NCBI RefSeq assembly: GCF_001457595.1
Contig: NZ_LN831039.1
Location: 4,950,001-4,982,000, forward strand
Length of the DNA: 32,000 bases
Origin: Mycolicibacterium smegmatis
GTDB taxonomy: Bacteria; Actinomycetota; Actinomycetes; Mycobacteriales; Mycobacteriaceae
Direction of reading: 5' to 3'
A program made the position numbers and the translations under genes. Below the pieces are notes generated by a model. That model did no database searches. It had not been told where the DNA came from and worked only from the letters and a program-made list of their open reading frames with translations. This document shows, piece after piece, positions 522 to 31,894 of this stretch. Numbering within the stretch: position 1 is the first letter of the stretch; every line of letters starts with the position of its first letter.

Positions 522-540
522 CCGAGAATACTATTCTCGG
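522..540. promoter_or_regulatory. Perfect 19-bp palindrome CCGAGAAT-ACT-ATTCTCGG (core GAGAAT-N3-ATTCTC, 524-538); candidate operator in the divergent crotonase/tetR promoter region
   Basis: Read directly from the sequence. Arms CCGAGAAT (522-529) and ATTCTCGG (533-540) are exact reverse complements. The site lies 40 nt from the crotonase start at 481 and 54 nt from tetR ATG 595. The same core recurs at 22690, 26077 and 31880. Confidence 0.65.
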
Positions 541-551
541 TATACGAAAGT

Positions 552-557
552 TACAAT
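552..557 (+). promoter_or_regulatory. Candidate -10 hexamer TACAAT for the TetR gene
   Basis: TACAAT fits the mycobacterial TANNNT -10 pattern. It sits about 38 nt upstream of ATG 595. The palindrome at 522-540 would then cover the -35 region. Sequence pattern only. Confidence 0.3.
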
Positions 558-594
558 CTCCGACACGTTGGCCGCGAGGGGGTCTGGGACCACT

Positions 595-1323
595 ATGGCA
601 AGGCGTTCTCCGGTACAGTCGATCCATGCTCTCCCGACTCGACAAGCATCTGAGCCGTCCGTGACCAGCGCCGGCGAAGAACCCGCATGGAAGCAGCGGG
701 CGGTCGAGCGGTCGATCAAAACCGCGAAGTTGCGCGCCGCCCAGCGAGTACAGCGCTTCCTGGACGCCGCCCAGGCGATCATCATCGAAAAAGGCAGCAC
801 CGACTTCACGGTGCAGGAGGTCGTCGACCGCTCCCGGCAGTCACTGCGCAGCTTCTACCTGCAGTTCGACGGTAAGCACGAACTGCTGCTCGCACTCTTC
901 GAGGACGCGCTGAGCCGCTCTGCCGACCAGATCCGCGCCGCGACCGCGAGCCATTCGGACCCATTGGAACGTCTCAAAGTGGCCATCCAGCTGCTGTTCG
1001 AGTCGTCCCGGCCGGATCCGGCCGCCAAGCGGCCGCTGTTCACCGACTTCGCACCGCGCCTTCTGGTGTCCCATCCGTCCGAGGTCAAAGTCGCGCACGC
1101 GCCGCTGCTGGCCCTGCTCACCGAGTTGATGGAAGAGGCGGGCGAGGCCGGCCTCCTCCGCGAGGGCATCAACCCGAAGCGCATGGCCGCGATGACGATG
1201 CAGACCGTCATGTTCGTCGCGCAGTCGAGTGGCGGGGCCGACGAGTCCACGCCCAATCCCATCACGGCCGACGAGGTCTGGGACTTCGTCGCGCACGGCT
1301 TCTCAGCCGATCCGCCCGCCTGA
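595..1323 (+). CDS. TetR/AcrR family transcriptional regulator
   Basis: Track ORF 568-1323. The HTH region is FLDAAQAIIIEKGSTDFTVQEVVDRSRQSLRSFYLQFDGKHELLLALFE. ATG 595 is preferred over TTG 568 because of a GAGGGGG SD-like motif at 575-581 and the putative -10 at 552-557. Alternative start 568. Confidence 0.85.
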   Translation: MARRSPVQSIHALPTRQASEPSVTSAGEEPAWKQRAVERSIKTAKLRAAQRVQRFLDAAQAIIIEKGSTDFTVQEVVDRSRQSLRSFYLQFDGKHELLLALFEDALSRSADQIRAATASHSDPLERLKVAIQLLFESSRPDPAAKRPLFTDFAPRLLVSHPSEVKVAHAPLLALLTELMEEAGEAGLLREGINPKRMAAMTMQTVMFVAQSSGGADESTPNPITADEVWDFVAHGFSADPPA

Positions 1324-1336
1324 GAACCACGTTCTC
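1322..1336. promoter_or_regulatory. Perfect palindrome GAGAAC-CAC-GTTCTC overlapping the tetR stop codon; relaxed copy of the GAGAAT-N3-ATTCTC operator
   Basis: Read from the sequence. Arm length and 3-nt spacer match the core motif. There is a symmetrical T->C / A->G change at the inner arm position. Confidence 0.35.
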
Positions 1337-1463
1337 CGCGCGTCAGAAGCCATTACTCCTTGGGCGTGATGCCGGTCACGGGAATGGTTTCTCCGACCGA
1401 TCCCTTTCCGCCGCCCGCACAATTTCGACAACGCATGTTGCCATTCTTTTCTGTTGTGCAGTC

Positions 1464-1480
1464 GCTCAGCATTGCTGAGC
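1464..1480. repeat. Perfect 8-1-8 inverted repeat GCTCAGCA-T-TGCTGAGC in the low-GC leader; the 9-mer TGCTGAGCA recurs at 1608-1616
   Basis: Read from the sequence. It could be a protein-binding site or an RNA hairpin. No function can be assigned. Confidence 0.4.
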
Positions 1481-1525
1481 ATGTGTTGTGAAGCGTCCGT
1501 TTCGCTGCTCTGGACAGCGATGCAT

Positions 1526-1673: not shown

Positions 1674-2519
1674 ATGTCTGGACGGGTGGAAGGCAAGGTC
1701 GCATTCGTCACCGGCGCGGCCCGCGGCCAGGGCCGTAGTCACGCACTGCGGTTGGCGCAGGAAGGCGCCGACATCATCGCCATCGACATCTGCGGCCCCA
1801 TTCGCCCCGGCGCCGAAACCGCCATCCCGGCATCGACATCCGATGACCTTGCCGAGACCGCGAACCTGGTGAAGGGACTCGACCGCCGCGTCGTCACCGC
1901 GGAGGTGGACGTGCGCGACGCCGCGGCCATCAAGGCCGCTGTCGACAGCGGTGTCGAGCAGCTCGGCAGGCTCGACATCATCGTCGCCAACGCCGGCATC
2001 GGCAACGGCGGCGACACCCTCGACCAGACCTCCGAGGAGGACTGGGACGAGATGATCGACATCAATCTGTCCGGTGTCTGGAAGTCTGTGAAAGCCGGTG
2101 TCCCCCATATCGTCGCGGGCGGACGCGGCGGGTCGATCGTCCTGACCAGTTCGGTAGGCGGGCTGAAGGCCTATCCGCACTGCGGCAACTACGTGGCCGC
2201 CAAGCACGGCGTGGTGGGCCTCATGCGGGGCTTCGCAGTGGAACTCGGGCAGCACAACATCCGCGTCAACACCGTGCACCCGACGCACGTCGCCACCCCG
2301 ATGCTGCACAACGAGGGCACCTTCAAGATGTTCCGTCCCGACCTGGAGAACCCGGGCCCCGACGACATGGCCCCCATCTGCCAGATGTTCCACACGTTGC
2401 CCATCCCGTGGGTCGAGCCCATCGACATCAGCAACGCCGTGCTGTTCCTGGCCTCCGACGAGGCCCGTTACATCACGGGCGTGACGTTGCCGGTCGACGC
2501 GGGAAGCTGCCTCAAGTAG
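1674..2519 (+). CDS. Mycofactocin-coupled SDR family oxidoreductase (carveol dehydrogenase LimC-like)
   Basis: The N-terminus is GKVAFVTGAARGQGRSHALRLAQEGADIIAIDICGPI. The GAARGQGRSHA motif and the IAIDIC insertion are typical of the mycofactocin-associated SDR subfamily. YVAAK (YxxxK) is present. An AGAGG SD lies 8 nt upstream of the ATG. Confidence 0.85.
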   Translation: MSGRVEGKVAFVTGAARGQGRSHALRLAQEGADIIAIDICGPIRPGAETAIPASTSDDLAETANLVKGLDRRVVTAEVDVRDAAAIKAAVDSGVEQLGRLDIIVANAGIGNGGDTLDQTSEEDWDEMIDINLSGVWKSVKAGVPHIVAGGRGGSIVLTSSVGGLKAYPHCGNYVAAKHGVVGLMRGFAVELGQHNIRVNTVHPTHVATPMLHNEGTFKMFRPDLENPGPDDMAPICQMFHTLPIPWVEPIDISNAVLFLASDEARYITGVTLPVDAGSCLK

Positions 2520-2528
2520 GGCCGGTCC

Positions 2529-10330: not shown

Positions 10331-11563
10331 TCACCAGGCGACGGGAAGTTCGTACACGCCGTAGGCGAGCCGGTCGTGCTTGAACGGCACTTCCTCGAGC
10401 GGGATCGCCAGGCGCAGCGTCGGGATGCGGCGCAGCAGGGTGTGGAACACGATCTGCAGTTCGGCGCGCGCGAGCTGCTGGCCCACGCACTGGTGCCTGC
10501 CGTAACCGAAGCCGAGCTGCTGCCCGGCGTCGCGGGTCAGGTCCAGCTTGTCGGGCTCGGGGAACGCCTTGGCATCCCAGTTGGCCGGCACCAGGTCGAT
10601 GATGATGCCCTCGCCGGCCTTGATGGTCTCGCCGCCGATCTCGATGTCCTCGACCGCCACGCGGCGCTGCCCGGTCTGGATGATCGACAGGTAGCGCATG
10701 AGTTCCTCGACCGCGTTGGCGATCACCTTCGGATCCTCGGCATTGCGCAGGAAGTCGGCCTGTTCGGGATTTTCCAGCAGCGCGAGGATGCCGATGCCGA
10801 TCATGTTGGCCGTGGTCTCGTGCCCGGCGATCAGCAGGCCCGTGCCCAGCTGGGCGGCCTCCTTGACGCTGAGTTCACCGGCCGTGACGCGCTCGGCCAG
10901 ATCGGATACGGCGTCCTCGGCGGGCTCGGCCTGCTTCTTCTCGATCAGGTCGATCAGATACTGGTGCAGGCTCATCGCGCCCTTCTGCATGGCATCCGCG
11001 GCGGCGTAGCGGGCCAGGCCTGCGTTGGCGTGCTCCTGGAAGAACTCGTGGTCCTCGTATGGGACGCCGAGCATCTCGCTGATCACGACCGTGGGCACCG
11101 GCAGCGCGAGCTTGTCGACGATGTCCGCCGGCTGCGGTCCGGCGAGGATCGCGTCGATGCACTCGTCGGTGATCTTCTGGATGGCCGGACGCAGTCCCTC
11201 GACGCGCCGGAACGTGAACGGCTTGGACAGCATCCGGCGAAACCGGGTGTGCTCCTCGGCATCCGAGGTGAACACCGACCGCGGCCGCTTGTGCACCGTG
11301 GCCAGCATGTGCTCGTTCCAGTGTGGGAAGCCCGGACGACGGTCGTCCACGCTCACCCGGGAGTCGGCGAACAACGCCCGGGCCTCCTCGTGGCCGGTGA
11401 TGAGCCACGGCGTGCTGCCGTCCCAGATCCGCACGCGGGACAGGCCTTTGGCCTTGTTCATGTCCAGCATCTGTGGCGGCGGCGCGAACGGGCACGCGGC
11501 CGCGCGCTCCATGGGGTATCCGGGGATGTCGGTAGCGCTGGGCTGCGTCAGGGTCTCGGACAT
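10331..11563 (-). CDS. Cytochrome P450 (class I, bacterial)
   Basis: The track ORF 10331-11872 is over-extended. ATG 11563 (MSETLTQPS...) has an AGAGGAA SD. Motifs: I-helix AGHETT, ExxR (VEELMRY), and heme-thiolate loop FGYGRHQCVGQQLA. Confidence 0.9.
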   Translation of the reverse strand: MSETLTQPSATDIPGYPMERAAACPFAPPPQMLDMNKAKGLSRVRIWDGSTPWLITGHEEARALFADSRVSVDDRRPGFPHWNEHMLATVHKRPRSVFTSDAEEHTRFRRMLSKPFTFRRVEGLRPAIQKITDECIDAILAGPQPADIVDKLALPVPTVVISEMLGVPYEDHEFFQEHANAGLARYAAADAMQKGAMSLHQYLIDLIEKKQAEPAEDAVSDLAERVTAGELSVKEAAQLGTGLLIAGHETTANMIGIGILALLENPEQADFLRNAEDPKVIANAVEELMRYLSIIQTGQRRVAVEDIEIGGETIKAGEGIIIDLVPANWDAKAFPEPDKLDLTRDAGQQLGFGYGRHQCVGQQLARAELQIVFHTLLRRIPTLRLAIPLEEVPFKHDRLAYGVYELPVAW

Positions 11564-11595
11564 GTGTCGGTGTGTTCCTCTGGGATCGGTCTGTG

Positions 11596-11790
11596 TCAGT
11601 CGTGGATCTCGATGGCCAGGGCCGGGCAGGCCGCCGCTGCGCGACGCGCGTTGTCCTCCTGGTCGGGGTCGGGGCTGTCGTCGAGCAGCTCCACGACGCC
11701 GTCGTCGTCGCGCTGGTCGAACACCTCGCCCGCGTTGAGCACGCACTGTCCCGACGAGACGCACCTGTCCTGGTCGACGGAAACCTTCAC
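11596..11790 (-). CDS. Small [3Fe-4S]-type ferredoxin; presumptive P450 redox partner
   Basis: 64 aa. Contains CVSSGQC...CP(ALAI), the CxxGxC...CP pattern of actinobacterial single-cluster ferredoxins. A GGAGGAG SD precedes the GTG start. The gene is 32 nt upstream of the P450. Confidence 0.85.
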   Translation of the reverse strand: MKVSVDQDRCVSSGQCVLNAGEVFDQRDDDGVVELLDDSPDPDQEDNARRAAAACPALAIEIHD

Positions 11791-11793
11791 TGC

Positions 11794-16083: not shown

Positions 16084-16086
16084 CGC

Positions 16087-17397: not shown

Positions 17398-17411
17398 ACT
17401 CTTGCTTCCTC

Positions 17412-20137: not shown

Positions 20138-21755
20138 CGTTTTCACCTCCCTGTCTCAGATGCAGGATGCCGAACAGTGCGGTGCTCAATTCGGGTGCGC
20201 GCTGGGCGATGTCGGCGCCTGCGATGCAGCGGTCGGGGCGCAGCACCAGGACCGACTCGGTGTGCGCGTCGAAGAAGGCCTTGAGTGCGCCGGTACGGTC
20301 GCCGACGATCACGACGTCCGGATCGTCGTCTTTTGTCCAGTGCAGCTGCGTGGACGGCCGCGCGGCGATGAACGCCGCGCCCAACGCCTTCCAGCGGGTG
20401 AAGGCCGCCTCCCCCAGCAACGTGCGCGGGTTGTTGTTCCAGCACAACACCGCGAAACCGGTGCCGAGGACGTCGTCGAGCAGCACGTTGTCCTGTTCGC
20501 GGGTGTCGACGCGGGGCTGGATGAACAGCGTGCCCACCGGGGATGCGGGCGTGGGCGGTTTGGCGTGGTACACCGCGCCCTCGTGGTAGCGCGGCATGGG
20601 TTTGAAGCGCATCTCCAGCACGTAGCGCTTGAGCGTCGGGACGATGGAGGCACCGCGGATCAGCTTGTCGCGCAGGGCCGCAACCTTGCGGTTGGTCGGC
20701 GAGATGACGCGGCCCACCATGGTGGACAGGTCGATCATGGCGCGTGCGTGCTTGCGTCGCTCGGCGTCGTAGGTGTCCAGTAGCGCGTCGCCGGCCTGGC
20801 CCCTGACCACCGCGGCGAGCTTCCACCCGAGGTTGAACGCATCGCGGATGCCGCTGTTGTAGCCCTGGCCCTGCCACACCGGCATGAGGTGCGCGGCGTC
20901 GCCCGCCAGCAGCATGCGGCCCTTGCGGAAGGATCCCGCGATCCGGGAGTGGTGGGTGTAGACCCGCCTGCGGATGACGTCGACCCTGTCGGGATGCGGT
21001 ACGAACGGCCTGAGCAGTTCGGCGACGAACTCGGGATCCTCGGCCTGCTCGTCGGTCTCGTCGGCGTGGATCATGAACTCGAAACGCCGGATGCCGTGCG
21101 CGATCGAGATCGACGCGTACGGGCGTTGCGGATCGGCGCCGACCTCGCTGTTGGGATGCCCGAGCGGGTCGTTGGCCAGGTCGATCACCACCCATCGGGT
21201 GGACGACGTGGTGCCGTCGAACGAGACACCCATGAGGTGGCGCGTGGCGCTGCGACCACCGTCGCACCCGACGACGTACTGCGCGTGCACCGACGCCGGC
21301 CCGTCGGGTCCCGACACCTCGACGGTGACGCCGTCGGCGTCCTCGGCGATGGTCTGCATGCGCCGGCCCCACATCACCTCGACGTGGTCGAACCGGTCCA
21401 GTCCCGCGAGCAGCTCGGCGTCGACCATGGGCTGGACGAATCCGTTTCGCTTGGGCCAGCCGAACCGCGCGTCCGGCGGCGCCATCTCGGCAAGCAGCCT
21501 GCGGTTGGCGTCGTAGAAACGCAGGATCTGGTTGGGCACGGTGTGCGGCAGGATCGCGTCGACCAGCCCGATCGACTGGAACGTGCGCAGCGACTCGTCG
21601 TCGAGACCGACACCGCGCGGGTAGTCGATGAGGGTTTCGCGTTCCTCGATGATCAGCGTCCGCACGCCTTGTGCGCCGAGGATGTTCGCCAGGGTCAGGC
21701 CGACGGGCCCGGCCCCGACGATCACGACGTCGACTGCACCAGGGCTGGTTGTCAC
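20064..21755 (-). CDS. mhpA: 3-(3-hydroxyphenyl)propionate/3-hydroxycinnamate hydroxylase (group A flavoprotein monooxygenase)
   Basis: [80 protein letters not shown] and [11 protein letters not shown] match E. coli MhpA nearly motif for motif. GTG start, 4 nt after the mhpC stop. The 3' end overlaps mhpB by 74-83 nt. Confidence 0.9.
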
Positions 21756-21759
21756 GCCC

Positions 21760-22668
21760 TCACCGCCCGAGCAGGAAGTCGAGGTGCAATTGGTTGAACG
21801 TCGCCGGGTCCTCGTACTGTGGCCAGTGCCCGCACCCGGGCATCACCTCGAACCTGGCTCCGGGGATCATCGACGCGATGCGCCGCCCCTCGGCGACGTC
21901 GGCCGTCGGGTCGTCACTGGTCCACACGACCAGCGTCGGCGCGGTGATCGAACCGTATTCGGTCTGTCCCAGCAGGTTCCGCGCGCGGATCTGCGGATCC
22001 TGCAGCGCCATGATGTCACTCATCGCGGCGACGAAACCCGGCTGGCGGTACACGCGTTGGCGGCTCGCGACGATGTCGTCGTAATCCTTGCTCTTGTCGG
22101 CCATGAGCCACTTGATGCGTGCCTGCACGGTGTCCCACGTGGGGTTCTCGGCGGCCGCCATCGACAGCGTGATGATGCGCTTCATCACCTCGGGATCGGC
22201 CTGCGATCCGCCCGCGGTGTTGAGTACCAACTTCTCGACGCGGTCGGGATGGTCGACCGCGACGCGCGCCGCGACCCAACCGCCCAGCGACTCCCCCGAG
22301 ATGTGCGCGCGCTGCGCACCGATGGTGTCCAGGAAGGCGATGACGTGGTCGACGTAGTGGGCGACCTCCAGCGGGTGGCCGGGTTTGTCGGTGTAGCCGT
22401 GCCCGAGCATGTCGATGGACCACGTCGAGAAGTGCTCGGCGTGGGCCGCGAGGTTGCGGACGTAGGCCTCGGCGTGTCCGCCCGAGCCGTGCAGGAACAG
22501 CAGCGCGGGTGCCTGCGAATTTCCGGCGTGCAGGTACCGCGTGCGGATCTTCCTGTCGCCCACGGGGACATCGAGGTAGCCCTGCGAGAACGCGACTCCT
22601 TGCAGATCGCTCCAGATGCTTTCGAACTCGACGGCCGACGCGGTGCCTGCCGCGGCAGTGCTTGTCAT
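21760..22668 (-). CDS. mhpC: 2-hydroxy-6-ketonona-2,4-dienedioate hydrolase-like meta-cleavage-product hydrolase
   Basis: The track ORF 21760-22719 would run through the operator at 22690-22704. ATG 22668 has a strong AGGAGAGGGGA SD. Motifs: [19 protein letters not shown] nucleophile elbow, GCGHWPQYE. It is positioned with mhpA/mhpB. Confidence 0.8.
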
Positions 22669-22689
22669 GGTCCCCTCTCCTGACGACCG

Positions 22690-22704
22690 GAGAATCATAT
22701 TCTC
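22690..22704. promoter_or_regulatory. Perfect palindrome GAGAAT-CAT-ATTCTC, 21 nt upstream of the mhpC start; candidate operator
   Basis: Read from the sequence. It lies between the AT-rich promoter region and the mhpC SD. Confidence 0.65.
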
Positions 22705-22737
22705 TTTTTCTGTAAGCACTTTGCTCAGTTATCGCAC

Positions 22738-22769
22738 ATCAGAGTGCATTATTATCAGAGCATCACTCT
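22738..22769. promoter_or_regulatory. Repeat cluster in the AT-rich mhpC/iclR divergent promoter region: direct repeats ATCAGAGTGCAT / ATCAGAGCAT and inverted repeat AGAGTG...CACTCT; a TATTAT -10-like hexamer lies at 22750-22755
   Basis: Read from the sequence. This is a candidate IclR-regulator binding site and/or promoter elements. The assignment is inferential. Confidence 0.35.
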
Positions 22770-22798
22770 CGCGGTTCTATCTGTCAAGGAGGGACGCG

Positions 22799-23524
22799 AT
22801 GCCCGCCAACGCAGCACAGTCGGCAGCACGCACACGAGCCGAAGGCGCGCCCAGCGCCGCCCCCGGCTCACAGACCCTGGCGCGCGGCCTGAGCGCCCTG
22901 CAGGCCATCGCCGACGCGCCGGGCGGGCTCACCGTCCAGCAGGTCGCCGACCACCTCGGCGCGCACCGGACCATCGCCTACCGGTTGCTGGCCACCCTGA
23001 GCCAATTTCGTTACGTGGCAAAGGGAGAAGACGGCCGCTACCGGCCCGCGGCGGCGCTCGCGGTCCTCGGATCGTCGTTCGACAACAACGTGCGCCAACT
23101 GGCCATCCCGACCCTGCGGACGCTGGCCGACGAACTCGGCTCCACGGTGTCGCTCCTCGTTGCCGAGGGTGATCAGCAGGTCGCGATCGCGGTGATCGTG
23201 CCCTCGCAGGTGTACTACCAACTCTCGTTCCACGAGGGCAGTCGCCACCCCCTCGACCGAGGTGCGGCAGGCGTGGCGCTGCTGGCCAGCATGCCGCCGC
23301 GGCCCGGCGAACGCGACCTCGTGCGGCAGACCCGCGAACAGGGCTGGGTGATCACCCACGGCGAGATCGAACCGAACACCTACGGCCTGGCCGTACCGGT
23401 GCGGCGGCGCCCGCCGTCGCCACCCACCTGCATCAACCTCATCTCGCACCGCGAGGACGTCGTCCTCGGGGGCAAGGACGCGGTGGTGCGGGCCGCACGC
23501 GAACTCTCGGCAATCCTGCACTGA
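22799..23524 (+). CDS. IclR family transcriptional regulator, MhpR-like by position (divergent from the mhp genes)
   Basis: The track ORF 22616-23524 is over-extended. ATG 22799 has an AAGGAGGGA SD. The wHTH region is LARGLSALQAIADAPGGLTVQQVADHLGAHRTIAYRLLATL, followed by an IclR effector domain. Confidence 0.85.
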   Translation: MPANAAQSAARTRAEGAPSAAPGSQTLARGLSALQAIADAPGGLTVQQVADHLGAHRTIAYRLLATLSQFRYVAKGEDGRYRPAAALAVLGSSFDNNVRQLAIPTLRTLADELGSTVSLLVAEGDQQVAIAVIVPSQVYYQLSFHEGSRHPLDRGAAGVALLASMPPRPGERDLVRQTREQGWVITHGEIEPNTYGLAVPVRRRPPSPPTCINLISHREDVVLGGKDAVVRAARELSAILH

Positions 23525-23538
23525 AAGGTCTTGCACAC

Positions 23539-25179
23539 ATGACTGATTCGAACGGCCTCCACGACTCCTTCGACGACGAGGTCGACGTCGCGGTGCTCGG
23601 AACCGGCGGCGCCGGGCTCACCGCGGCGCTGACGGCCGCGGTCAACGGCGCCTCGGTCGCGGTGTACGAGAAGGCGGCCACCATCGGCGGGACCACAGCG
23701 GTGTCCGGTGGCATCGTGTGGATCCCGGCCCACGACCGGGCCGGCGAACCGCTGCCCGTCGAGGATGCGCTCGCGTACCTTGCGGCGCAGTCCCTCGGGT
23801 ACATGGACACCGCACTCGTCGAGACGTTCGTGCGGACCGGTCCGGTGATGCTCGACTTCGTCGAGGCCCACAGTGAACTGCGGTTCGCCGTCGCCGAGGG
23901 CTTCCCCGACTACAAACCCGAGCTGCCCGGCGGGCGGCCCGGCGGCGGGCGGTCGCTGAGCGCGGGCCCGATCGACCTGGCCCGCCTCGGCGAGTGGCGA
24001 GACCGGATCACCTCGTTCCCCGCCGATTTCAGCAATGTCGGCATCGATGCCGAGACCCGCGCGCGCATCCACGCGGCCTACGACGATCCGGACGCCGATC
24101 TGTGCGTCGCGGGCACCGCGCTGGTCGCGGGCCTGCTGCGCGGTCTGCTCGACCGGGGCGTCAAGCCCGTCACCTCGGCACGCGCGGTCGAACTGCTCGG
24201 ATCGGCCGATGGCATCACCGGCGTGCGAATCCGCCTCGACGGCACCGACATCCGGGTACGCGCACGCGGCGGCGTGGTGCTGGCCACGGGCGGGTTCGAG
24301 TGGGACACCACGCTCGTCGAGGCGTTCCTGCGCGGACCCATGCACGGCCCGGTGTCACCCCCGAACAACACGGGTGACGGACTGCGCATGGCGATGGCCC
24401 ACGGCGCCGATCTGGCGAACATGGGTGAGGCGTGGTGGGTTCCGGTGGTCCAGATCCCGGGCGACACGATCGACGGGCACCCCCGCAGCCGCAGCATCCG
24501 TCTCGAACGCACCCGGCCCCGCAGCGTCATCGTCAACCGCGCGGGCAACCGGTTCGTCAACGAGGCCGGCGAGTACAACTCGATGGCCGGCCCGTTCCAG
24601 TACCTCGATCCCAAGGCCGGTTACGCCAACGATCCGGCCTGGATCGTGTTCGACTCGGTCCATCTGCAGCGCTACGGATTCCTCGGCGTCGAGCCCGGCG
24701 GCCAGGCACCGGACTGGTTCTGCGAGTCGGCCGATCTGGACGAGTTGAGCGCCAGGACCGGCATCGACGCCGCGGGTCTGGCGGCCACGTTGCGGCGGTG
24801 GAACGACAACGTCGGCCGCGACACCGATCCCGTCGACCCCGATTTCGGCCGCGGCGCCAGCGCCTACGACGGCTACTGGGGCGACACGTCGGCCGACACC
24901 CCCGCGCGACAGACCCTCGGGCCGCTCGACACCGCCCCGTTCTACGCCGTGCCGGTGAAGGTCGGCGCGATGGGCACCAAGGGCGGCCCGCGCACCGACC
25001 GCGACGGACGCGTGCTGCACGTCAACGGCTCACCGATCCCCGGTCTGTACGCCGCGGGCAACGCCATGGCCGGCGTGACGGGCAAGGCCTATGGCGGCGC
25101 GGGCGGCACGCTCGGCCCGGCGCTGGTGTTCGGCTACCGCAGCGGATATGCCGCGGCCACGGGCAAATCAGTCGACTGA
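23539..25179 (+). CDS. FAD-dependent oxidoreductase, KstD/fumarate-reductase flavoprotein-like; paralogue of 17412-19199
   Basis: VDVAVLGTGGAGLTAAL...YEK...GGTTAVSGGIVW, VVLATGGFEWD, and C-terminal GLYAAGN and GGTLGPALVFGY. It starts 14 nt after the iclR stop. Confidence 0.8.
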   Translation: MTDSNGLHDSFDDEVDVAVLGTGGAGLTAALTAAVNGASVAVYEKAATIGGTTAVSGGIVWIPAHDRAGEPLPVEDALAYLAAQSLGYMDTALVETFVRTGPVMLDFVEAHSELRFAVAEGFPDYKPELPGGRPGGGRSLSAGPIDLARLGEWRDRITSFPADFSNVGIDAETRARIHAAYDDPDADLCVAGTALVAGLLRGLLDRGVKPVTSARAVELLGSADGITGVRIRLDGTDIRVRARGGVVLATGGFEWDTTLVEAFLRGPMHGPVSPPNNTGDGLRMAMAHGADLANMGEAWWVPVVQIPGDTIDGHPRSRSIRLERTRPRSVIVNRAGNRFVNEAGEYNSMAGPFQYLDPKAGYANDPAWIVFDSVHLQRYGFLGVEPGGQAPDWFCESADLDELSARTGIDAAGLAATLRRWNDNVGRDTDPVDPDFGRGASAYDGYWGDTSADTPARQTLGPLDTAPFYAVPVKVGAMGTKGGPRTDRDGRVLHVNGSPIPGLYAAGNAMAGVTGKAYGGAGGTLGPALVFGYRSGYAAATGKSVD

Positions 25180-26052
25180 TCCGGCGAACAGCCGCTCGGC
25201 CGCGGTGTAGGCGTCGCTGCTGCCGTCGGCCACGGCCGCCGACAACCGGTCGAGGTCGGCGTGGTTGCGCAGCAGGGTCTGCGCGAGCGACAGGATCTGG
25301 CTGCGCGCCCGCGCGCGGCGCCGTTCGGGGGTGTCGGCGCGCTGGTGCGCCTCGATGGCCTCGATGAGTTCGTGCAGGCCGTCCCCCTGCGCGGCGACGA
25401 GTTTGAGCACTGGGACGTCGGTTTCGGCGCGCAGATCGCGGACCGTCTGGTCGGCGCCGTCACGATCGGCCTTGTTGACCACCACCAGATCGGCCACCTC
25501 GAGCACACCGGCCTTGGCGGCCTGCACGGCATCGCCCGCGCCGGGGTTGAGGATCACCACCGTGGGGTCGGCGATCGCGGCGATCTCGATCTCGGACTGC
25601 CCCACCCCCACGGTCTCCAGCACGATCAGGTCGTACGACAGCGCGGCCAGCAGGCGGATCGCCGCCGGGACGGCCGCGGCCAGCCCGCCGAGGTGCCCGC
25701 GTGCGGCCATCGACCGGATCAGCACGTCGGGGTCGTTGATGTGGGCGGCCATGCGGATGCGGTCACCGAGCAGTGCCCCGCCGCTGTAGGGCGACGAGGG
25801 GTCGACCGCGAGGACCGCGACCCGCAGCCCGCGTTCGCGATAGGCCCCCACCATGGCGCCCACCGTGGTCGACTTGCCCGCTCCCGGCGGTCCGGTCACA
25901 CCGATGACGCGCGGCGTCGCGGGCCCGAGCGCCGCGAGCACCTCACCGCGACGGTCGCTTTCGACCAGCGTGAGCAGCCGACCCACCGCGCGCATCGATC
26001 CGCCCCTGGCCGCGGTGATGAGCTCGGGTACATCGACGACGCCGTGGGGCAT
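25168..26052 (-). CDS. MeaB/ArgK-family G3E P-loop GTPase (methylmalonyl-CoA mutase chaperone-like), 294 aa
   Basis: The track ORF 25168-26967 is over-extended. ATG 26052 has an AGGAGAAAGA SD. Motifs: GVTGPPGAGKST (P-loop), DPSSPYSGGALLGDRIRM, ETVGVGQSE, NKAD. Confidence 0.85.
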   Translation of the reverse strand: MPHGVVDVPELITAARGGSMRAVGRLLTLVESDRRGEVLAALGPATPRVIGVTGPPGAGKSTTVGAMVGAYRERGLRVAVLAVDPSSPYSGGALLGDRIRMAAHINDPDVLIRSMAARGHLGGLAAAVPAAIRLLAALSYDLIVLETVGVGQSEIEIAAIADPTVVILNPGAGDAVQAAKAGVLEVADLVVVNKADRDGADQTVRDLRAETDVPVLKLVAAQGDGLHELIEAIEAHQRADTPERRRARARSQILSLAQTLLRNHADLDRLSAAVADGSSDAYTAAERLFAGSVD

Positions 26053-26076: not shown

Positions 26077-26091
26077 GAGAATGTTATTCTC
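26077..26091. promoter_or_regulatory. Perfect palindrome GAGAAT-GTT-ATTCTC in the divergent meaB-like/SDR promoter region; candidate operator
   Basis: Read from the sequence. It lies 24 nt from the meaB-like ATG 26052 and 36 nt from the SDR ATG 26128. Confidence 0.65.
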
Positions 26092-26127: not shown

Positions 26128-26892
26128 ATGCAGATCGCCGGTACCTCCGCACTCGTCGTGGGCGGCACGGGTGGCCTCGGTGAGGCGACCGTGCGCCGAT
26201 TGCACGGCGCGGGCGCCAAGGTCGTCGTCGCCGATGTGGCCGACGACAAGGGCGCGGCGCTCGAGAAAGAACTCGGTATCCGATACGTGCGCACCGACGC
26301 GACCTCGGAGGAATCCGTGCTCGCCGCGATCGCCGAGGCGGAATCGCTCGCGCCGCTGCGCATCTCGGTCGACACGCACGGCGGCCCGGCCAGCGGTGGC
26401 CGGCTGGTGGGCAAGGACGGTTCCCCGCTGGACCTCGACGGGTTCAAGAAGACCATCGAGTTCTACCTCACCGCGGTGTTCAACGTCATGCGCCTGACGG
26501 CGGCCGCGATCGCCAGGACCGAACCCCTCGAAGAGGGTGGCCGCGGCGTCATCGTCAACACGGCGTCGATCGCGGGCTACGAGGGCCAGATCGGCCAGTT
26601 GCCGTACTCGGCCGCCAAGGGCGGTGTGCTGGGCATGACGCTCGTCGCCGCACGCGACCTGTCGCCGCTCGGCATCCGCGTCGTCACCATCGCCCCCGGC
26701 ACCATCAACACACCCGCCTACGGGCAGGCCGCCGATCAGCTCGAGCAGTACTGGGGCCCGCAGGTGCCTTTCCCCAAGCGCATGGGCCGGTCCACCGAAT
26801 ACGCCCAACTCGCGCAGAGCATCGTCGAGAACGACTATCTCAACGGCGAGGTGATCCGCCTCGACGGCGCGCTCCGCTTCCCGCCCAAGTGA
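26128..26892 (+). CDS. SDR, 3-hydroxyacyl-CoA dehydrogenase type-2 (HSD17B10)-like
   Basis: The track start 26110 is TTG. ATG 26128 has an AAGGAGGG SD. GRGVIVNTASIAGYEGQIGQLPYSAAKGGVLGMTLVAARDLSPLGIRVVTIAPG and the C-terminal YLNGEVIRLDGALRFPP closely parallel HSD17B10 as I recall it. Confidence 0.85.
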   Translation: MQIAGTSALVVGGTGGLGEATVRRLHGAGAKVVVADVADDKGAALEKELGIRYVRTDATSEESVLAAIAEAESLAPLRISVDTHGGPASGGRLVGKDGSPLDLDGFKKTIEFYLTAVFNVMRLTAAAIARTEPLEEGGRGVIVNTASIAGYEGQIGQLPYSAAKGGVLGMTLVAARDLSPLGIRVVTIAPGTINTPAYGQAADQLEQYWGPQVPFPKRMGRSTEYAQLAQSIVENDYLNGEVIRLDGALRFPPK

Positions 26893-26976
26893 CCAAGTGA
26901 CCCTCTTGCACCGCGAGCGTGCGCGCCTGCCTGCCGAAACGCCGCCCGCAAGCAGCACTTCACGCACCTTCGGTGT

Positions 26977-27756
26977 ATGACGAACGTGCGTGAAACGCCT
27001 AAGCCGTCAACACCCGGCAGTCTGGCCGGGAAGGTCGCCTTCGTCGCAGGTGCCAGCCGCGGTATCGGGGCCACCATCGCGACCGCGCTCGCGGCCGAGG
27101 GTGCGGCCGTCTCGGTCGCGGCCCGGTCCGAGCGTCCCGGCAAGCTGCCCGGCACGATCGACTCGGTGGCGTCGGCCATCACCGACGCAGGCGGCCACGC
27201 CCTCCCGGTCGTATGCGACGTCACCGACGAGCAGTCCGTCGAACGCGCTGTCGCCCAGACGGTCTCCGAACTCGGCGGCATCGACATCCTGGTCGCCAAC
27301 GCCGGTGTGCTGTGGCTCGGACCGATCGAGAACACCCCACTCAAACGCTGGCAGCTGTGCCTCGACGTCAACCTCACCGGGGTGTTCCTGGTGACCAAAG
27401 CGGTGATCCCCCACGTGCGCGCCCGCGGCGGCGGATCGCTCATCGCGATCACCACCACGGGCGTCGACATGGTCGAGCACGGATCCAACGCCTACTGGGT
27501 GTCCAAGGCCGCCACCGAACGGCTCTACACGGGTCTCGCAGCCGATCTGCGTGACGACAACATCGCGGTCAACTGCCTGAGCCCGTCGCGCGTCGTGCTG
27601 ACCGAGGGCTGGCAGGCCGGCGGCGGCGGGCTCAAGATCCCGCCCGAGATGATCGAACCGCCCGAGGCGATGGCGCGCGCGGCCGTGCTGCTCGCGCAAC
27701 AGGACGGCACCGGCGTGACCGGCACCGTGCAGCGCTCCGAGGCGCTCACGCTCTGA
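26977..27756 (+). CDS. SDR family oxidoreductase, HSDL2-like
   Basis: GKVAFVAGASRGIGATIA...AARSERPGKLPGTIDSVASAITDAGGHALPVVCDVTDEQSV...GGIDILVANAG parallels the HSDL2 SDR domain. YWVSK is present. The start has no clear SD. Confidence 0.75.
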   Translation: MTNVRETPKPSTPGSLAGKVAFVAGASRGIGATIATALAAEGAAVSVAARSERPGKLPGTIDSVASAITDAGGHALPVVCDVTDEQSVERAVAQTVSELGGIDILVANAGVLWLGPIENTPLKRWQLCLDVNLTGVFLVTKAVIPHVRARGGGSLIAITTTGVDMVEHGSNAYWVSKAATERLYTGLAADLRDDNIAVNCLSPSRVVLTEGWQAGGGGLKIPPEMIEPPEAMARAAVLLAQQDGTGVTGTVQRSEALTL

Positions 27757-27763: not shown

Positions 27764-28531
27764 CTAGTTCTTACGCGCGTTGAGGCCCGCGACGATGGCC
27801 TTGAAGTCCTCGGTTCGGAACGACTGCTCCTCGGCGGTGTTGCCGAAGTCGAGCGTCGCCAGCACGGCCTGCTCCATGTGCAGGTTGAGCAGCCGTTTGG
27901 TGGCCTCCAGCGACTGCCGTGGCAGCTTGGCCATCTTCTGCGCGGCCTCGATGGCCTCGGCCACCGGATCGTCCGAAAGGTGGTTGGCCAGGCCCAGTTC
28001 CACGGCCCGCTGCGCCGGGATGCGCGCACCGGTCAGCGCGTACTCCTTGGCCAGCAGCAGGCTGATGTGCAGCGGCCACGTGATGGGACCGCCGTCGGCG
28101 GCGACCAGACCCACCTGCACGTGCGGGTCGGCGAGGTAGGCCTGCGGCGCGATGTAGACGATGTCGCTCAATGCCACGAGGCTGCAACCCAATCCGACCG
28201 CGGGCCCGTTGACCGCGGCGACCACGGGCACGCGGCAGCGCGTCATCCCCAGCACGATCTCACGCCCGTGCAGGATGGTCTTGGCCCGTAGTTTGGGATC
28301 CTCACCGAGCTCCTGCAGGTACGCGAAATCACCACCTGCCGAGAACGCGCGACCCGCACCCGTGATCACGGCCGCGCGTGCGTCGTAGTCCTCCGACAAA
28401 CGCGTCCACAGGTGCGCGAGGCCCTCGTGCAACGAGTCGTTGACGGCGTTGAGGGCCTCGGGCCGGTTGAGGGTGATGACGCGGATGTCCCCCTCGGCGC
28501 GCACCTCGATTTCGTCTGGCATTCCGTACAT
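27764..28531 (-). CDS. Enoyl-CoA hydratase/isomerase (crotonase) family protein
   Basis: The track ORF 27764-28633 is over-extended. ATG 28531 lies 4 nt after the ACAD stop. Motifs: IRVITLNRPEALNAV, VITGAGRAFSAGGDF, VAAVNGPAVGLGCSLVALSDI. Confidence 0.85.
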   Translation of the reverse strand: MYGMPDEIEVRAEGDIRVITLNRPEALNAVNDSLHEGLAHLWTRLSEDYDARAAVITGAGRAFSAGGDFAYLQELGEDPKLRAKTILHGREIVLGMTRCRVPVVAAVNGPAVGLGCSLVALSDIVYIAPQAYLADPHVQVGLVAADGGPITWPLHISLLLAKEYALTGARIPAQRAVELGLANHLSDDPVAEAIEAAQKMAKLPRQSLEATKRLLNLHMEQAVLATLDFGNTAEEQSFRTEDFKAIVAGLNARKN

Positions 28532-28535
28532 TCGG

Positions 28536-29624
28536 TCAAACTCCCAATCCGAGGATGCGTGAGGCGATGATGTTCTTCTGGATCTGCGAGGTGCCGCCCA
28601 TGACGCTCTGGGCGCGGCTGTACAGGTAGGCACTGAGCAGTTCGGGATCCGAGGTCCCGCTGACCGCGAGCGCGGCGTGCCCGACCGACTGTTCGACCCA
28701 CGTCATGAGCAGTTTGTCGAGCGACCCTTGCGGACCGTGCTTGAGCCCGTCGAGTTGTTCGGACAACCGGCGCCGCACGTGCAGGCGCAGCATCTCGGCC
28801 TGCACCGCGGCCCACGCCAGATCCTGGGGCGCACGTCCCTCGACGCGGGACGCCATCTCGCGCACCAGCTTTCCGTAGCGTGCGGAGTAGCCGAGCGTCG
28901 ACGGTTCGCGTTCGTGGCTGACGACGGTCATCGCCAGCGCCCAGCCCTCACCGGGCGCTCCCACCATGTGCGACGCGGGCACCACCGCGTTGTCGAATGT
29001 CACCTGACCGAACTCGGTGGTGACGCCGTTGATCATCTTGAGCGGACGCTGCTGGATGCCGTCCTGGTGCATCGAGATGATGAACGCCGAGATGCCCTTG
29101 TGGCGCGGCACATCCTTGTCGGTGCGCGCCAGCAGCAGGCACCAGTCGGCGACGTCGGAGTAGCTGGTCCAGATCTTGTGGCCGTTGATGATGTAGTTGT
29201 CGCCGTCGCGCGTGGCCGTGGTGATCAGCGACGCCAGGTCCGACCCGGCACCCGGCTCAGAGAAGCCCTGGCACCACCGCTCGGTGCCGTTGATCATGCC
29301 GGGCAGGAACCGCTGCTGCAGTTCCTTGCTGCCGTGGTGTCCCAGGCCGACGACGAGATAGCCGAGGCTGGGCCGCGGCGGCGCACCGGCGCGCGCGAGT
29401 TCCTCGTCGACGATCACGTCGTAGACGGGCGGCAAATCCTGCCCGCCGAACTCGTTGGGCCACGACGTGCCGAAAAACCCTGCGCCGTACAGGGCCTGGT
29501 GCCACTCCCCCTGACGGGCCCAGTAGTCGTCGCCGGAGGCCTTGAACGACGCGGCGTTGTCGGCCAGCCAGGACCGCAACCGGTCGCGGAAGGCCGCTTC
29601 CTCGGGTGAATCACGAAAATCCAA
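28536..29624 (-). CDS. Acyl-CoA dehydrogenase, full three-domain (alpha-type) subunit
   Basis: CQGFSEPGAGSDLASL, INGHKIWTSY, and C-terminal GGTSQIQKNIIASRILGL. The TTG start at 29624 has a GGAGG SD 9 nt upstream. It overlaps the upstream ACAD gene by 14 nt. Confidence 0.85.
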   Translation of the reverse strand: MDFRDSPEEAAFRDRLRSWLADNAASFKASGDDYWARQGEWHQALYGAGFFGTSWPNEFGGQDLPPVYDVIVDEELARAGAPPRPSLGYLVVGLGHHGSKELQQRFLPGMINGTERWCQGFSEPGAGSDLASLITTATRDGDNYIINGHKIWTSYSDVADWCLLLARTDKDVPRHKGISAFIISMHQDGIQQRPLKMINGVTTEFGQVTFDNAVVPASHMVGAPGEGWALAMTVVSHEREPSTLGYSARYGKLVREMASRVEGRAPQDLAWAAVQAEMLRLHVRRRLSEQLDGLKHGPQGSLDKLLMTWVEQSVGHAALAVSGTSDPELLSAYLYSRAQSVMGGTSQIQKNIIASRILGLGV

Positions 29625-30441
29625 GATCCGAAACCTCCAAGTCCTCCAGTCCGACGGGCCACAGTTCAGTCGAGGTCAGCGCGCGGCGCAGATACACGTG
29701 TGCCAGGCATTCCCACGTGTTGCCGATACCGCCGTGCACCTGAATGGCGGTCTCGCACACCGTGCGCGCCGCACGCGCGCAGTACACCTTCGCGATCCGG
29801 CCGGCCCGCACGGCCTCATCGGGTTCGAGTTCGTCGACACCCCACGCGGCGTGGCGCAGCACGCTGATCGAACCCTCGATGAGCGCGAGACCTTCGGCCA
29901 ACAGGTGCGCGACGGCCTGGTACGAGCCGATGGTCGAGCCGTACTGTTCCCGCACCTTCGCGTAGTCGACGGCAAGGGCGTGGGCGCCGCGCGCGGCACC
30001 GACCAGATCCGCGCTCGTCGCCGCGAGCGCCAGCGCATGCCAGCGGGCCGCGTCGCCGGCACGCAACTCCGAGAGCTCGGCAGGCGACTGGAGCACGCCC
30101 GCAGCGCTGTTGGTGAGGTCGACACCCGCGGTGCCCGCGGCAGCGTCGGGCACCGCGACCGCACGGCCGAGCCGCTGTGCGAGGTCGTCGGCGAGGATCG
30201 GCCCGAGGAACGGCACGTCGACGAGCCCGCGGGCGAATTCCTCCGCGACGATCGCCACCTCCACACCGGACGCGCCGTCGGATCGCAGCGTGCGCCACTC
30301 GGTGGCGGCCACCGTGTTCTCCAACCGCGCGATGCGGCCGCGGTCCTCCAGTTCGTGGACCGAGCCCGGTCCGAGGTCGTCGGCCAGTTTGGCAGCGGCC
30401 TCTCGCAGCTGCTGCTGTTCAGCCGTCAGACGGACGTCCAT
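29611..30441 (-). CDS. Truncated acyl-CoA dehydrogenase-like protein (beta-type subunit), 276 aa
   Basis: It has an N-terminal helical ACAD domain and a C-terminal domain (VDYAKVREQYGSTIGSYQAVAHLLAE, IQVHGGIGNTWE). Only about 35 residues occupy the place of the ~110-aa middle beta-domain. The ATG 30441 overlaps the synthetase 3' end by 23 nt. Confidence 0.8.
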   Translation of the reverse strand: MDVRLTAEQQQLREAAAKLADDLGPGSVHELEDRGRIARLENTVAATEWRTLRSDGASGVEVAIVAEEFARGLVDVPFLGPILADDLAQRLGRAVAVPDAAAGTAGVDLTNSAAGVLQSPAELSELRAGDAARWHALALAATSADLVGAARGAHALAVDYAKVREQYGSTIGSYQAVAHLLAEGLALIEGSISVLRHAAWGVDELEPDEAVRAGRIAKVYCARAARTVCETAIQVHGGIGNTWECLAHVYLRRALTSTELWPVGLEDLEVSDLGFS

Positions 30442-31789
30442 GCCGCTCCTTCAGCACTCGTCGCAATACCTTTCCGGAAGGCAAGCGGGGTATCTCGGTT
30501 ACGAATTCGACGCGGCGGGGCCGCTTGTACGACGCGAGCCGCGACCCGACGAGGTCGATGAGTTCCTCGGCGGACACCTCGGCACACGTGGCCACGGCCG
30601 CGACCACGGCCTCTCCGTCGGTGTCGTGCGGTTCGCCGAACACCGCGCAGTCGGCGACGGCGGGATGCCCGTGCAGCACGGCCTCCACCTCGGCCGGGGC
30701 GACCTGGAATCCGCGCACCTTGACCATCTCCTTGGCACGGTCGGTGACGTGCAGATACCCGTCGTCGTCGAGGAATCCGATGTCGCCTGTGCGGTACCAG
30801 CCGTCGTCGAAGGCGCCCCCGGTGGCGGACTCGGGTAGGTAGCCGCACATGGCCGATGGTGAACACACCTGGATCTCGCCGGTATCCGCGATGCGCACCC
30901 GTACGCCGCGCACCGGTTTGCCGACGGTCTCGATCCTGGTGTCGTCCAGCGGGTTACACGCGATCACGGGCAGTTCGGTGGTGCCGTATGCGGTGAGCCA
31001 CCGGATCCCGGCACGCGCGGTGATGTCCTCGGCGACGCTGCGCGTGACCGGCGTCGCACACCACATCACGAACCGCAGCGACGACAGGTCGAACCGCTCC
31101 AGGCCGGGATGTGCGGCCAGCGCCAGAGCGATGGGCGCGACGGCCATCTCGATCGTGATGCCGTCGGATTCGATGTGACGCAACATGGTTTCGACGTCGA
31201 ACCGGGGGTGCAGTCGCATCCAGGCGCCGGTGTCGAGCACCATCGCGATGTTGAGCAGGCCCAGGATGTGCGACGGCGGGGTCATGATCTGCATGCGGTC
31301 GGCCGCGGTGAGGCCGAGCGCGTCGCGCCAGTGCTCGATGGCCGCGGCGAACCCGGCGTGGCTGTGGCGCACGGCTTTAGGCATGCCCGTGGTGCCGGAG
31401 CTGAACACGAACAGCGCGTCGGCATCGGGAGCCACTGCGGGGCCGGGGCGTTCGCCGGGTGTGATCGGCTCGTCGAGGTGCACCATCGGCAGGTGTTCGG
31501 CGAGCAGCGGTTGGTCGCCGACCGCGTGGTTTGCACGTGTGAGTTCCAGTGCATGGGCGATCTCGGTGGTTTTCCACGCCGGGCTGATGAGGACCGCGGC
31601 GGCACCGAGGCGCCAGATCGCGCGTAGGGCGATGACGAATTCGGGCCGGTTCGACGACATCATCGCGACCCGGTCTCCCGGTCCGACGCCACGCTGCGCC
31701 AACGTCGCGGCCATGCCGCCGGCGAGCGCGTCGAGTTCGGTGAGGGTGTACTCGCGGTCGCCGAACGCCAGCACGGCGGACTCACCCAT
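30419..31789 (-). CDS. Acyl-CoA synthetase / AMP-dependent ligase (FadD-like, short form)
   Basis: AMP-binding motifs FSSGTTGMPKAV, YGTTE, WYRTGD and KVRGFQV, plus the C-terminal PRLPSGKVLRR. ATG 31789 has a GGTGAGG SD-like motif. GTG 31798 (track) is an alternative. Confidence 0.85.
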   Translation of the reverse strand: MGESAVLAFGDREYTLTELDALAGGMAATLAQRGVGPGDRVAMMSSNRPEFVIALRAIWRLGAAAVLISPAWKTTEIAHALELTRANHAVGDQPLLAEHLPMVHLDEPITPGERPGPAVAPDADALFVFSSGTTGMPKAVRHSHAGFAAAIEHWRDALGLTAADRMQIMTPPSHILGLLNIAMVLDTGAWMRLHPRFDVETMLRHIESDGITIEMAVAPIALALAAHPGLERFDLSSLRFVMWCATPVTRSVAEDITARAGIRWLTAYGTTELPVIACNPLDDTRIETVGKPVRGVRVRIADTGEIQVCSPSAMCGYLPESATGGAFDDGWYRTGDIGFLDDDGYLHVTDRAKEMVKVRGFQVAPAEVEAVLHGHPAVADCAVFGEPHDTDGEAVVAAVATCAEVSAEELIDLVGSRLASYKRPRRVEFVTEIPRLPSGKVLRRVLKERHGRPSDG

Positions 31790-31879
31790 GAGCCTCACCT
31801 GCCGTTTCCACCAGCGCTGACCTCTCGTGACGCGTACCCGCCGCAGCGATGCGACGGCGAGAAGATACTATCATTTCCG

Positions 31880-31894
31880 GAGAATGCTATTCTC
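31880..31894. promoter_or_regulatory. Perfect palindrome GAGAAT-GCT-ATTCTC in the divergent promoter region between the acyl-CoA synthetase operon and the next plus-strand gene
   Basis: Read from the sequence. It lies 34 nt upstream of ATG 31929 and 90 nt upstream of ATG 31789. It is flanked by a degenerate copy GAAGATACTATCATTTC (31861-31877). The half-site AGAATGCTA is repeated at 31903-31911. Confidence 0.65.

Follow-up and report, generated by a model that had tools for sequence, protein, structure and literature searches.

Among the described regulatory systems closest to the one reported here are those of KstR and KstR2, the mycobacterial repressors of cholesterol catabolism, in which a highly conserved, autoregulated TetR protein acts through one short palindrome that recurs across the divergent promoters of an extensive catabolic island. 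The effectors of both proteins are coenzyme A (CoA) thioesters, and members of the TetR family by default repress by occlusion until a ligand releases them. The TetR-type FadR of Bacillus and Thermus, an acyl-CoA-responsive repressor, likewise governs genes of the beta-oxidation type by way of short palindromes. For KstR the published box is TnnAACnnGTTnnA, which has 14 bp and an even spacer (PMC1995591). MftR, a mycobacterial TetR protein that represses the mycofactocin operon and responds to acyl-CoA, has the operator T-N2-GGCA-N5-TGCC-N2-A within a 27-bp footprint (PMC8728441). FdmR of M. marinum is described, in papers that cite its primary account, as a TetR repressor of fadE- and echA-type genes that responds to long-chain acyl-CoA, and as controlling fadE5 and general fatty-acid flux. 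The subject of this report is a 15-bp palindrome, GAGAAT-N3-ATTCTC, that recurs in 32,000 nt of Mycolicibacterium smegmatis DNA (contig NZ_LN831039.1, positions 4,950,001 to 4,982,000; this whole stretch is called the window, and coordinates below refer to it). Judged from sequence, we put the probability at about 0.8 that it is the operator of an autoregulated TetR repressor, designated TetR1 and encoded at 595-1323, that controls the transcription units of the catabolic island around it.

An exact search of the window finds four copies of GAGAAT-N3-ATTCTC (524-538, 22690-22704, 26077-26091 and 31880-31894), the first of which extends to a perfect 8-3-8 palindrome, CCGAGAATACTATTCTCGG, at 522-540. 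With up to two mismatches allowed, only two further sites are added, at 1322-1336 (GAGAACCACGTTCTC) and 1526-1540 (GAGAACCTGATTCTT), against a total expectation of 0.28. The six sites, named O1 to O6 and given without strand, and the gene for the proposed repressor are as follows.

524-538 (core; 8-3-8 palindrome at 522-540): O1, GAGAAT-ACT-ATTCTC, between the enoyl-CoA hydratase gene (minus strand) and tetR1 (plus strand)
1322-1336: O2, relaxed, GAGAAC-CAC-GTTCTC, overlapping the tetR1 stop codon
1526-1540: O3, relaxed, GAGAAC-CTG-ATTCTT, 134 nt 5' of a mycofactocin-type short-chain dehydrogenase/reductase (SDR) gene
22690-22704: O4, GAGAAT-CAT-ATTCTC, 21 nt from the mhpC-like start (minus strand) and 94 nt from iclR (plus strand)
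26077-26091: O5, GAGAAT-GTT-ATTCTC, 24 nt from the meaB-like start (minus strand) and 36 nt from an SDR gene (plus strand)
31880-31894: O6, GAGAAT-GCT-ATTCTC, 90 nt from the acyl-CoA synthetase gene (minus strand) and 34 nt from a ferredoxin gene (plus strand)
595-1323, plus strand: tetR1, TetR-family regulator of 242 amino acids, Pfam TetR_N (PF00440), the proposed repressor

These searches recover what had been predicted from the sequence by inspection: four perfect copies at these positions, a perfect 19-mer at 522-540, and relaxed copies at 1322 and 1526. The placement of the sites in non-coding DNA, also part of that prediction, agrees with a gene map based on codon-position GC content, Pfam and NCBIfam, in which all six sites, the four perfect and the two relaxed, are non-coding; the proposed start codons at 481 and 595, 22668, 26052 and 26128, and 31789 and 31929 hold as well. 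Each divergent intergenic region of the window contains one perfect site, 21-94 nt from the flanking start codons. The argument that an AT-rich word should be rarer still in GC-rich DNA proved sound, since the base composition of the window (68% GC) gives a calculated expectation of about 2e-4 perfect copies of this AT-rich 12-mer, and 100 dinucleotide-preserving shuffles contained none. When Y/R is permitted at the inner half-site position, four extra two-mismatch matches appear, at 14365, 22222, 23453 and 26827; all are intragenic, and their number is at chance level (1.9 expected). Comparison of the six copies in the window shows that they have only the 12-nt core in common, with unrelated flanks.

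The comparison set for conservation consisted of 81 orthologous tetR1 loci with 10-kb flanks, together with the window, for a total of 1.59 Mb. Among representatives of Mycobacterium and Mycolicibacterium species, at least 80 have a TetR1 orthologue that is 84-94% identical to the protein, and TetR1 is also present in M. heckeshornense and M. marinum. Sites near tetR1 fall into three classes by position: class A sites lie 5' of tetR1, class B sites lie at or just past the tetR1 stop codon and before the next cytochrome P450 (P450) or SDR gene, and class C sites lie 6-9 kb away, between an amidohydrolase_2 gene and a CMD/Rieske oxygenase operon. A class A site with no more than one mismatch is found in 80 of the 81 loci, and the remaining locus has a two-mismatch copy in the same place. 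Class B and class C sites are found in 47 and 73 of the 81 loci, respectively. The orthologue of the mycofactocin-coupled SDR gene is preceded by a site in 14 loci, and in several other species the same leader has second sites, as with O3.

In 79 loci, 55-57 nt separate the operator from the tetR1 start. The gene divergent from tetR1, however, varies (FadE or enoyl-CoA hydratase), and the gap from the operator to that neighbour ranges from 24 to more than 100 nt. Because the gap to tetR1 is fixed while the divergent neighbour changes, the operator is seen to travel with tetR1. An alignment of 82 sequences served as a phylogenetic footprint: identity is at least 90% in the operator columns and falls to 30-60% in the flank upstream of them. 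For a count of coding and non-coding copies we used a conservative coding mask, based on reading frame and on GC content at third codon positions, that marks 65% of positions as confidently coding. Over the 1.59 Mb, perfect copies number 0 in coding and 141 in non-coding DNA; the corresponding counts are 3 and 75 for copies with one mismatch, and 16 and 71 for those with two. A comparable genome-wide density in coding DNA had been named in advance as grounds for abandoning the prediction, and over the 1.59 Mb covered none of the 141 perfect copies is confidently coding.

The contexts of O4, O5 and O6 lie beyond the 10-kb flanks of tetR1 and were retrieved through orthologues of the IclR protein encoded next to O4. 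Three such contexts were compared: an M. goodii-like contig (L082), M. duvalii (L083) and a more distant contig (L084). The first two keep the gene order of the window from 13 to 32 kb and have perfect sites at the positions orthologous to O4, O5 and O6; the third keeps the site between mhpC and iclR. At O4 the half-sites are invariant, with spacers CAT in the window and CTT, TGA and CGG in L082, L083 and L084, and in general the orthologues of O4-O6 have perfect half-sites, varying spacers and divergent flanks. Invariant half-sites combined with varying spacers and flanks fit an element recognized by a protein. The proposal that one shared operator serves five or six transcription units has strong support from comparison, with orthologous intergenic conservation in more than 80 species.

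The features of TetR1 itself agree with such a role. It scores 31 bits against the Pfam TetR_N model (cutoff 24), and its DNA-binding domain (residues 29-110) is invariant in 18 species aligned. The 6-3-6 site 5' of tetR1 places a palindrome in the regulator's own promoter, as in other TetR systems. TetR1 is favoured as the cognate regulator because the invariance of its DNA-binding domain parallels that of the half-sites and because of the fixed autoregulatory offset. It was also the first candidate put forward in the original prediction, and we adopt that assignment provisionally on the 55-57 nt offset and on the absence of IclR orthologues, and the rarity of the second TetR protein of the island, TetR2, within 10 kb of the 81 tetR1 loci. 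An AlphaFold2 model of TetR1, built from a low-diversity alignment of 18 sequences, is all-helical with a predicted local distance difference test score (pLDDT) of 70; all Foldseek matches to this weak model are TetR proteins, with template modelling (TM) scores near 0.5. By sequence and fold, the nearest solved relatives are FadR of B. halodurans, T. thermophilus and B. subtilis, AibR, and KstR2. At its N terminus TetR1 is extended by about 45 residues (residues 1-50 correspond to 595-744); in this region, residues 1-28 are variable and predicted to be disordered, while residues 29-50 (EPAWKQRAVERSIKTAKLRAAQ) are invariant and basic. In SimR, an N-terminal arm contacts DNA; by analogy, residues 29-50 of TetR1 might form a DNA-contacting arm for the AT-rich centre of the operator.

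Compared with the KstR box, the palindrome described here is 15 bp long, has GAGAAT half-sites and has an odd spacer of three nucleotides, so that the difference in spacing noted in the original prediction is confirmed by the published box (PMC1995591). With the NCBIfam KstR model, TetR1 reaches 19.8 bits, far below the cutoff of 280. A variant of the KstR or KstR2 box was considered for the motif and rejected, since both the spacing and the regulator differ. FadR supplies the best PDB sequence matches to TetR1 (E about 6e-8) and is among the best fold matches, but identity is only about 20%, TetR1 carries the additional basic N-terminal segment of about 45 residues, and its presumed regulon is a specialised island rather than general fatty-acid degradation. 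The operators of FadR are not known to match GAGAAT-N3-ATTCTC. Like MftR, which is linked to mycofactocin, TetR1 would have a mycofactocin-coupled SDR gene among its targets; membership in the MftR regulon was rejected, as the MftR operator motif is absent from all six sites. A LexA/SOS box, GAAC-N4-GTTC, is a different sequence and was likewise set aside. M. marinum has a TetR1 orthologue with the operator. TetR1 and FdmR seem unlikely to be the same protein, because the citing papers through which we know FdmR, which give neither a locus tag nor a motif for it, assign it control of fadE5 and of general fatty-acid flux. A search that used the M. gordonae protein as query found orthologues at 91% identity in M. 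marinum and M. kansasii, but no M. tuberculosis orthologue of TetR1 is among the best 120 matches; the regulon appears to be missing from that species. A literature search, to which the primary account of FdmR was external, found no description of the motif or the regulator (text matches to the motif were to primers only), and nothing relevant on the estimated locus tags MSMEG_4844-4849; the tetR1 orthologue of M. smegmatis is estimated to be near MSMEG_4845-4848, upstream of MSMEG_4864. The TetR1 regulon therefore appears to be undescribed, although the switch itself would be of an ordinary TetR repressor and operator type.

Other regulators must be weighed against TetR1. IclR proteins bind palindromes of about 15 bp, and the IclR-family regulator encoded at 22799-23524 might bind the motif, at least at O4-O6, with tetR1 merely one target. 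Its gene is 94 nt from O4, its orthologues (80-95% identical) keep the upstream site in three other genomes, and in several fast growers it is encoded on the same contig as TetR1, which makes it a positionally possible regulator for O4-O6. However, the 81 tetR1 loci have two or three conserved sites each but lack any IclR orthologue within 10 kb, and the slow growers M. marinum, M. gordonae and M. heckeshornense have TetR1 and the operator while none of them is among the named top IclR matches. O4 is close to mhpC rather than to iclR, and the mhpC-iclR spacer holds a second, independently conserved block, TGTAAGCACTTTGCTCAnTTATCGCACAT, that is the better candidate for an IclR site. On this balance we consider IclR quite improbable as the cognate regulator, and an IclR/MhpR-type operator was rejected as the identity of the motif, which in the 81 tetR1 loci does not travel with iclR and adjoins it only at O4. 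TetR2 (11794-12486) is a TetR-family protein within the island, but its upstream region has no GAGAAT site, it lies within 10 kb of tetR1 in only 4 of the 81 loci, and the tetR-ferredoxin-CYP105Q4-like unit that it heads is typical for a local P450 regulator, all of which makes it a very poor candidate. The original prediction had offered IclR and TetR2 as further candidates; both are indeed encoded in the island, but IclR is absent from the neighbourhood of all 81 tetR1 loci, and TetR2 from that of 77.

The motif could instead belong to a regulator encoded outside the island, global or simply distant, for which the tetR1 promoter is just another target. The scan covered island-bearing loci, and sites may exist elsewhere in the genome, but all sites found cluster inside the island, and an offset of 55-57 nt to tetR1, maintained in about 80 species despite the changing neighbour, is a signature of autoregulation; we hold an outside regulator to be improbable. 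It is highly unlikely that the palindrome is a structural element of RNA or DNA, such as a terminator hairpin, a leader structure or a dispersed repeat. As RNA, each copy can fold into a 6-bp stem closed by a 3-nt loop; the fold of O1 reaches -13 kcal/mol, and a T-run follows O4. The other stems, however, are weak and AT-rich (-4.6 to -5.2 kcal/mol, with 8-12 of 200 shuffles folding as well), the sites lie between divergent starts and not at the 3' ends of genes, and it is the arm sequence that is conserved rather than pairing alone, single-sided T/C changes being tolerated. A scan against Rfam found no RNA family match, and terminator scans of the four intergenic regions found nothing at the sites. 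A dispersed or mobile repeat is ruled out because the copies in the window are alike in the 12-nt core only and their flanks are unrelated.

Several points weigh against TetR1 as the regulator of all these units. The co-occurrence of protein and motif is partly built in, the loci having been selected through TetR1 itself, and the species are related, so that the conservation counts are not independent events. The scan for the motif covered island-bearing loci. The proximity of iclR to O4 and the joint presence of IclR and TetR1 in fast growers, given above, count on the same side. Within the 20-kb minus-strand block, the internal blocks at 10291 and 12486 have no operator in front of them. The idea of an acyl-CoA effector is thinly based because the structural model is weak (pLDDT 70, TM about 0.5), and the promoter geometry described next depends on our own reading, by eye, of TANNNT hexamers.

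In the mechanism we propose for TetR1, one dimer would occupy each 15-bp palindrome, with one helix-turn-helix for each GAGAAT half-site. Because the sites lie 21-94 nt before the starts in each divergent region, bound TetR1 would obstruct RNA polymerase, either at the core promoter or shortly past the transcription start, and both flanking units would be repressed. For tetR1 itself, the relevant promoter element would be the following.

552-557, plus strand: TACAAT, likely -10 hexamer of the tetR1 promoter (its role as a promoter element being our interpretation)

This hexamer lies inside a block, GAAAGTTACAATCTCCGACACG, whose conservation across the 82 aligned sequences is at least 90% and which is also found in M. 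marinum; the conserved GTTACAAT, 13 nt downstream of O1, occurs in M. marinum too. If TACAAT is the -10 hexamer, then O1 covers the -35 zone, and TetR1 would repress its own gene from there. Since O4 and O5 end 21-24 nt before the mhpC and meaB starts, they would overlap the -10 and transcription start region or the early leader. All four perfect sites in the window have T as the last spacer base, which creates TATTCT (TANNNT) on the plus strand; this hexamer is 34-36 nt before the SDR and ferredoxin starts at O5 and O6. On the minus strand, the corresponding hexamers are TATGAT toward mhpC, TAACAT toward meaB and TAGCAT toward fadD. The idea that the operator always embeds a -10 hexamer has partial support: such hexamers are read in all four perfect sites of the window but in only about half of the sites across species, so that the pattern is no more than suggestive. 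A consensus promoter scan of the four intergenic regions found no sigma-70-type promoter, a result that is uninformative for mycobacteria, with their weak -35 elements. Release of TetR1 by an effector would turn on the whole island. The effector would most plausibly be a substrate-derived CoA thioester produced by the acyl-CoA synthetase or the CoA-transferases of the island; this is a guess by analogy, made because the nearest solved relatives of TetR1 bind acyl-CoA and because the island encodes those enzymes.

Some further details of the operator regions deserve mention. The tetR1 leader (540-594, GAAAGTTACAATCTCCGACACGTTGG...GAGGGGG) is at least 90% conserved in the 82 sequences, which exceeds the need of a -10 hexamer and a ribosome-binding site alone, and a TTG at 568 is a possible alternative tetR1 start codon upstream of 595. 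The leader of the mycofactocin-coupled SDR gene (1337-1673) is unusually long, at about 350 nt, and has no Rfam match; a terminator-like hairpin, GCTCAGCATTGCTGAGC, lies within it at 1464-1480, between the relaxed operators O2 and O3. In the mhpC-iclR spacer, a block at 22705-22745, TTTTTCTGTAAGCACTTTGCTCAGTTATCGCACAT, is largely invariant in four genomes including the distant one, and may be an IclR operator or a set of promoter elements, independent of the GAGAAT palindrome. The flanks of O6 (31856-31878 and 31899-31913) resemble degenerate half-sites, GCGAGAAGATACTATCATTTCC upstream and ATCAGAATGCTAGTG downstream; they are kept in the M. goodii-like DNA and in part in M. duvalii, and could be auxiliary sites or promoter elements.

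The genes of the island, and the operators that presumably serve them, are listed here.

2-481, minus strand: enoyl-CoA hydratase gene (Pfam ECH_1), cut by the window edge, divergent from tetR1, presumed O1 target
1674-2519, plus strand: mycofactocin-coupled SDR (NCBIfam TIGR03971, 393 bits), presumed O2 and O3 target
2529-22668, minus strand: long gene block, described below in order of coordinate
12597-22668, minus strand: gene block headed by the mhpC-like gene, presumed O4 target, with transcription possibly continuing to 2529
22799-23524, plus strand: iclR, with the downstream gene a possible second O4 target
23539-25179, plus strand: KstD/ChcC1-like dehydrogenase, after iclR
25168-26052, minus strand: MeaB-like GTPase (Pfam MeaB, E 3e-72), presumed O5 target
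26128-27756, plus strand: two SDR genes, presumed O5 targets
27764-31789, minus strand: operon for acyl-CoA synthetase (FadD), two acyl-CoA dehydrogenase (FadE) subunits and enoyl-CoA hydratase, presumed O6 target
31929-32000, plus strand: start of a 2Fe-2S ferredoxin gene (Pfam Fer2 on the M. goodii-like and M. duvalii orthologues), cut by the window edge, presumed O6 target

The open reading frame at 31929 was identified as a 2Fe-2S ferredoxin through orthologous gene calls. By increasing coordinate, the long minus-strand block encodes an SDR, a double CoA-transferase III and an enoyl-CoA hydratase, then two M24/creatinase-like proteins, amidohydrolase_2, a P450, a small ferredoxin and TetR2, followed by an SDR, an alpha/beta-hydrolase, a cyclase and another SDR, and last a luciferase-like monooxygenase, a KstD-like dehydrogenase, MhpB, MhpA and an MhpC/HsaD-like hydrolase. 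The gene order of its 12597-22668 portion is kept in all three of the contexts retrieved through IclR. The window is a Mycolicibacterium catabolic island, syntenic with the apparent MSMEG_4864-4870 region of M. smegmatis. In both length and arrangement, its two KstD-like genes match MSMEG_4864 and MSMEG_4870. A plasmid collection, queried with 25 kb of the window, gave only short, low-coverage matches and no annotated twin. The genes had been described in the original prediction as functionally unrelated. That view does not survive, for they form one syntenic catabolic island kept across mycobacteria, and a single pathway-specific regulon is therefore the natural reading. The gene comparisons indicate that many mycobacteria share this island.

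MSMEG_4864 and MSMEG_4870 are reported to lack a KstR operator and to show no cholesterol induction, and these two KstD paralogues, a nuisance in mycobacterial steroid biotechnology, are outside KstR control (PMC5270728). In an RNA-seq study, MSMEG_4835-4843 and MSMEG_4864-4873 are among the cholesterol-induced clusters (PMC4881515); by extrapolation, MSMEG_4835-4843 would map onto this island. The two KstD/ChcC-like flavoprotein dehydrogenases (within 17412-25179) bracket mhpB, mhpA and the mhpC-like hydrolase gene, and their best NCBIfam matches are below cutoffs. ChcC1 and ChcC2 aromatise 4-oxocyclohexanecarboxylate, and by analogy the KstD/ChcC-like pair might convert an oxocyclohexyl acid into an aromatic compound of the 3-hydroxyphenylpropionate type, on which MhpABC would act. 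At 11563-12486, on the minus strand, the gene for TetR2 (12486 to 11794) comes first, then that for a ferredoxin of about 64 amino acids with a CxxSxxC motif (11790 to 11596), then that for a P450 that starts at 11563 and matches M. marinum CYP105Q4 (PDB 8swl, E 2e-208); a longer P450 call, to 11872, is an over-extension. The pair mirrors Fdx9/CYP105Q4 of M. marinum. No tested compound shifted the spin state of CYP105Q4, which has no M. tuberculosis counterpart (PMC6237146). The MeaB-like GTPase gene (25168-26052, minus strand) has its own operator, O5, and no methylmalonyl-CoA-mutase-type gene was found in the window or on the orthologous M. goodii-like and M. duvalii contigs.

It is possible, although we regard it as doubtful, that the operator delimits a complete and undiscovered mycobacterial catabolic pathway of about 45-60 kb. 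In such a pathway, an alicyclic or steroid-like acid would be converted to its CoA ester and its side chain shortened by heteromeric FadE, enoyl-CoA hydratase and SDR enzymes. Hydroxylation would be carried out by the orphan CYP105Q4 with its ferredoxin, the two KstD/ChcC-like flavoproteins would desaturate the ring to an aromatic one, and MhpA, MhpB and MhpC would carry out meta-cleavage of the resulting 3-hydroxyphenylpropionate-type intermediate, with TetR1 sensing a CoA thioester of the pathway. If this is true, CYP105Q4 and the "silent" KstD paralogues, MSMEG_4864 and MSMEG_4870, would each gain a physiological role.

With TetR1 as its repressor, the operator links genes of orphan role, namely those for CYP105Q4, two KstD paralogues, MhpABC-like enzymes, a Rieske oxygenase and several CoA-transferases. 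It would provide a single genetic handle on them, as loss or titration of one repressor should switch on the whole island. The switch is mechanistically conventional, but a genus-wide regulon over a large orphan catabolic island is apparently undescribed. Environmental mycobacteria and opportunists, M. marinum and M. kansasii among them, have the regulon, and its apparent absence from M. tuberculosis may therefore mark a metabolic capacity lost in host adaptation.

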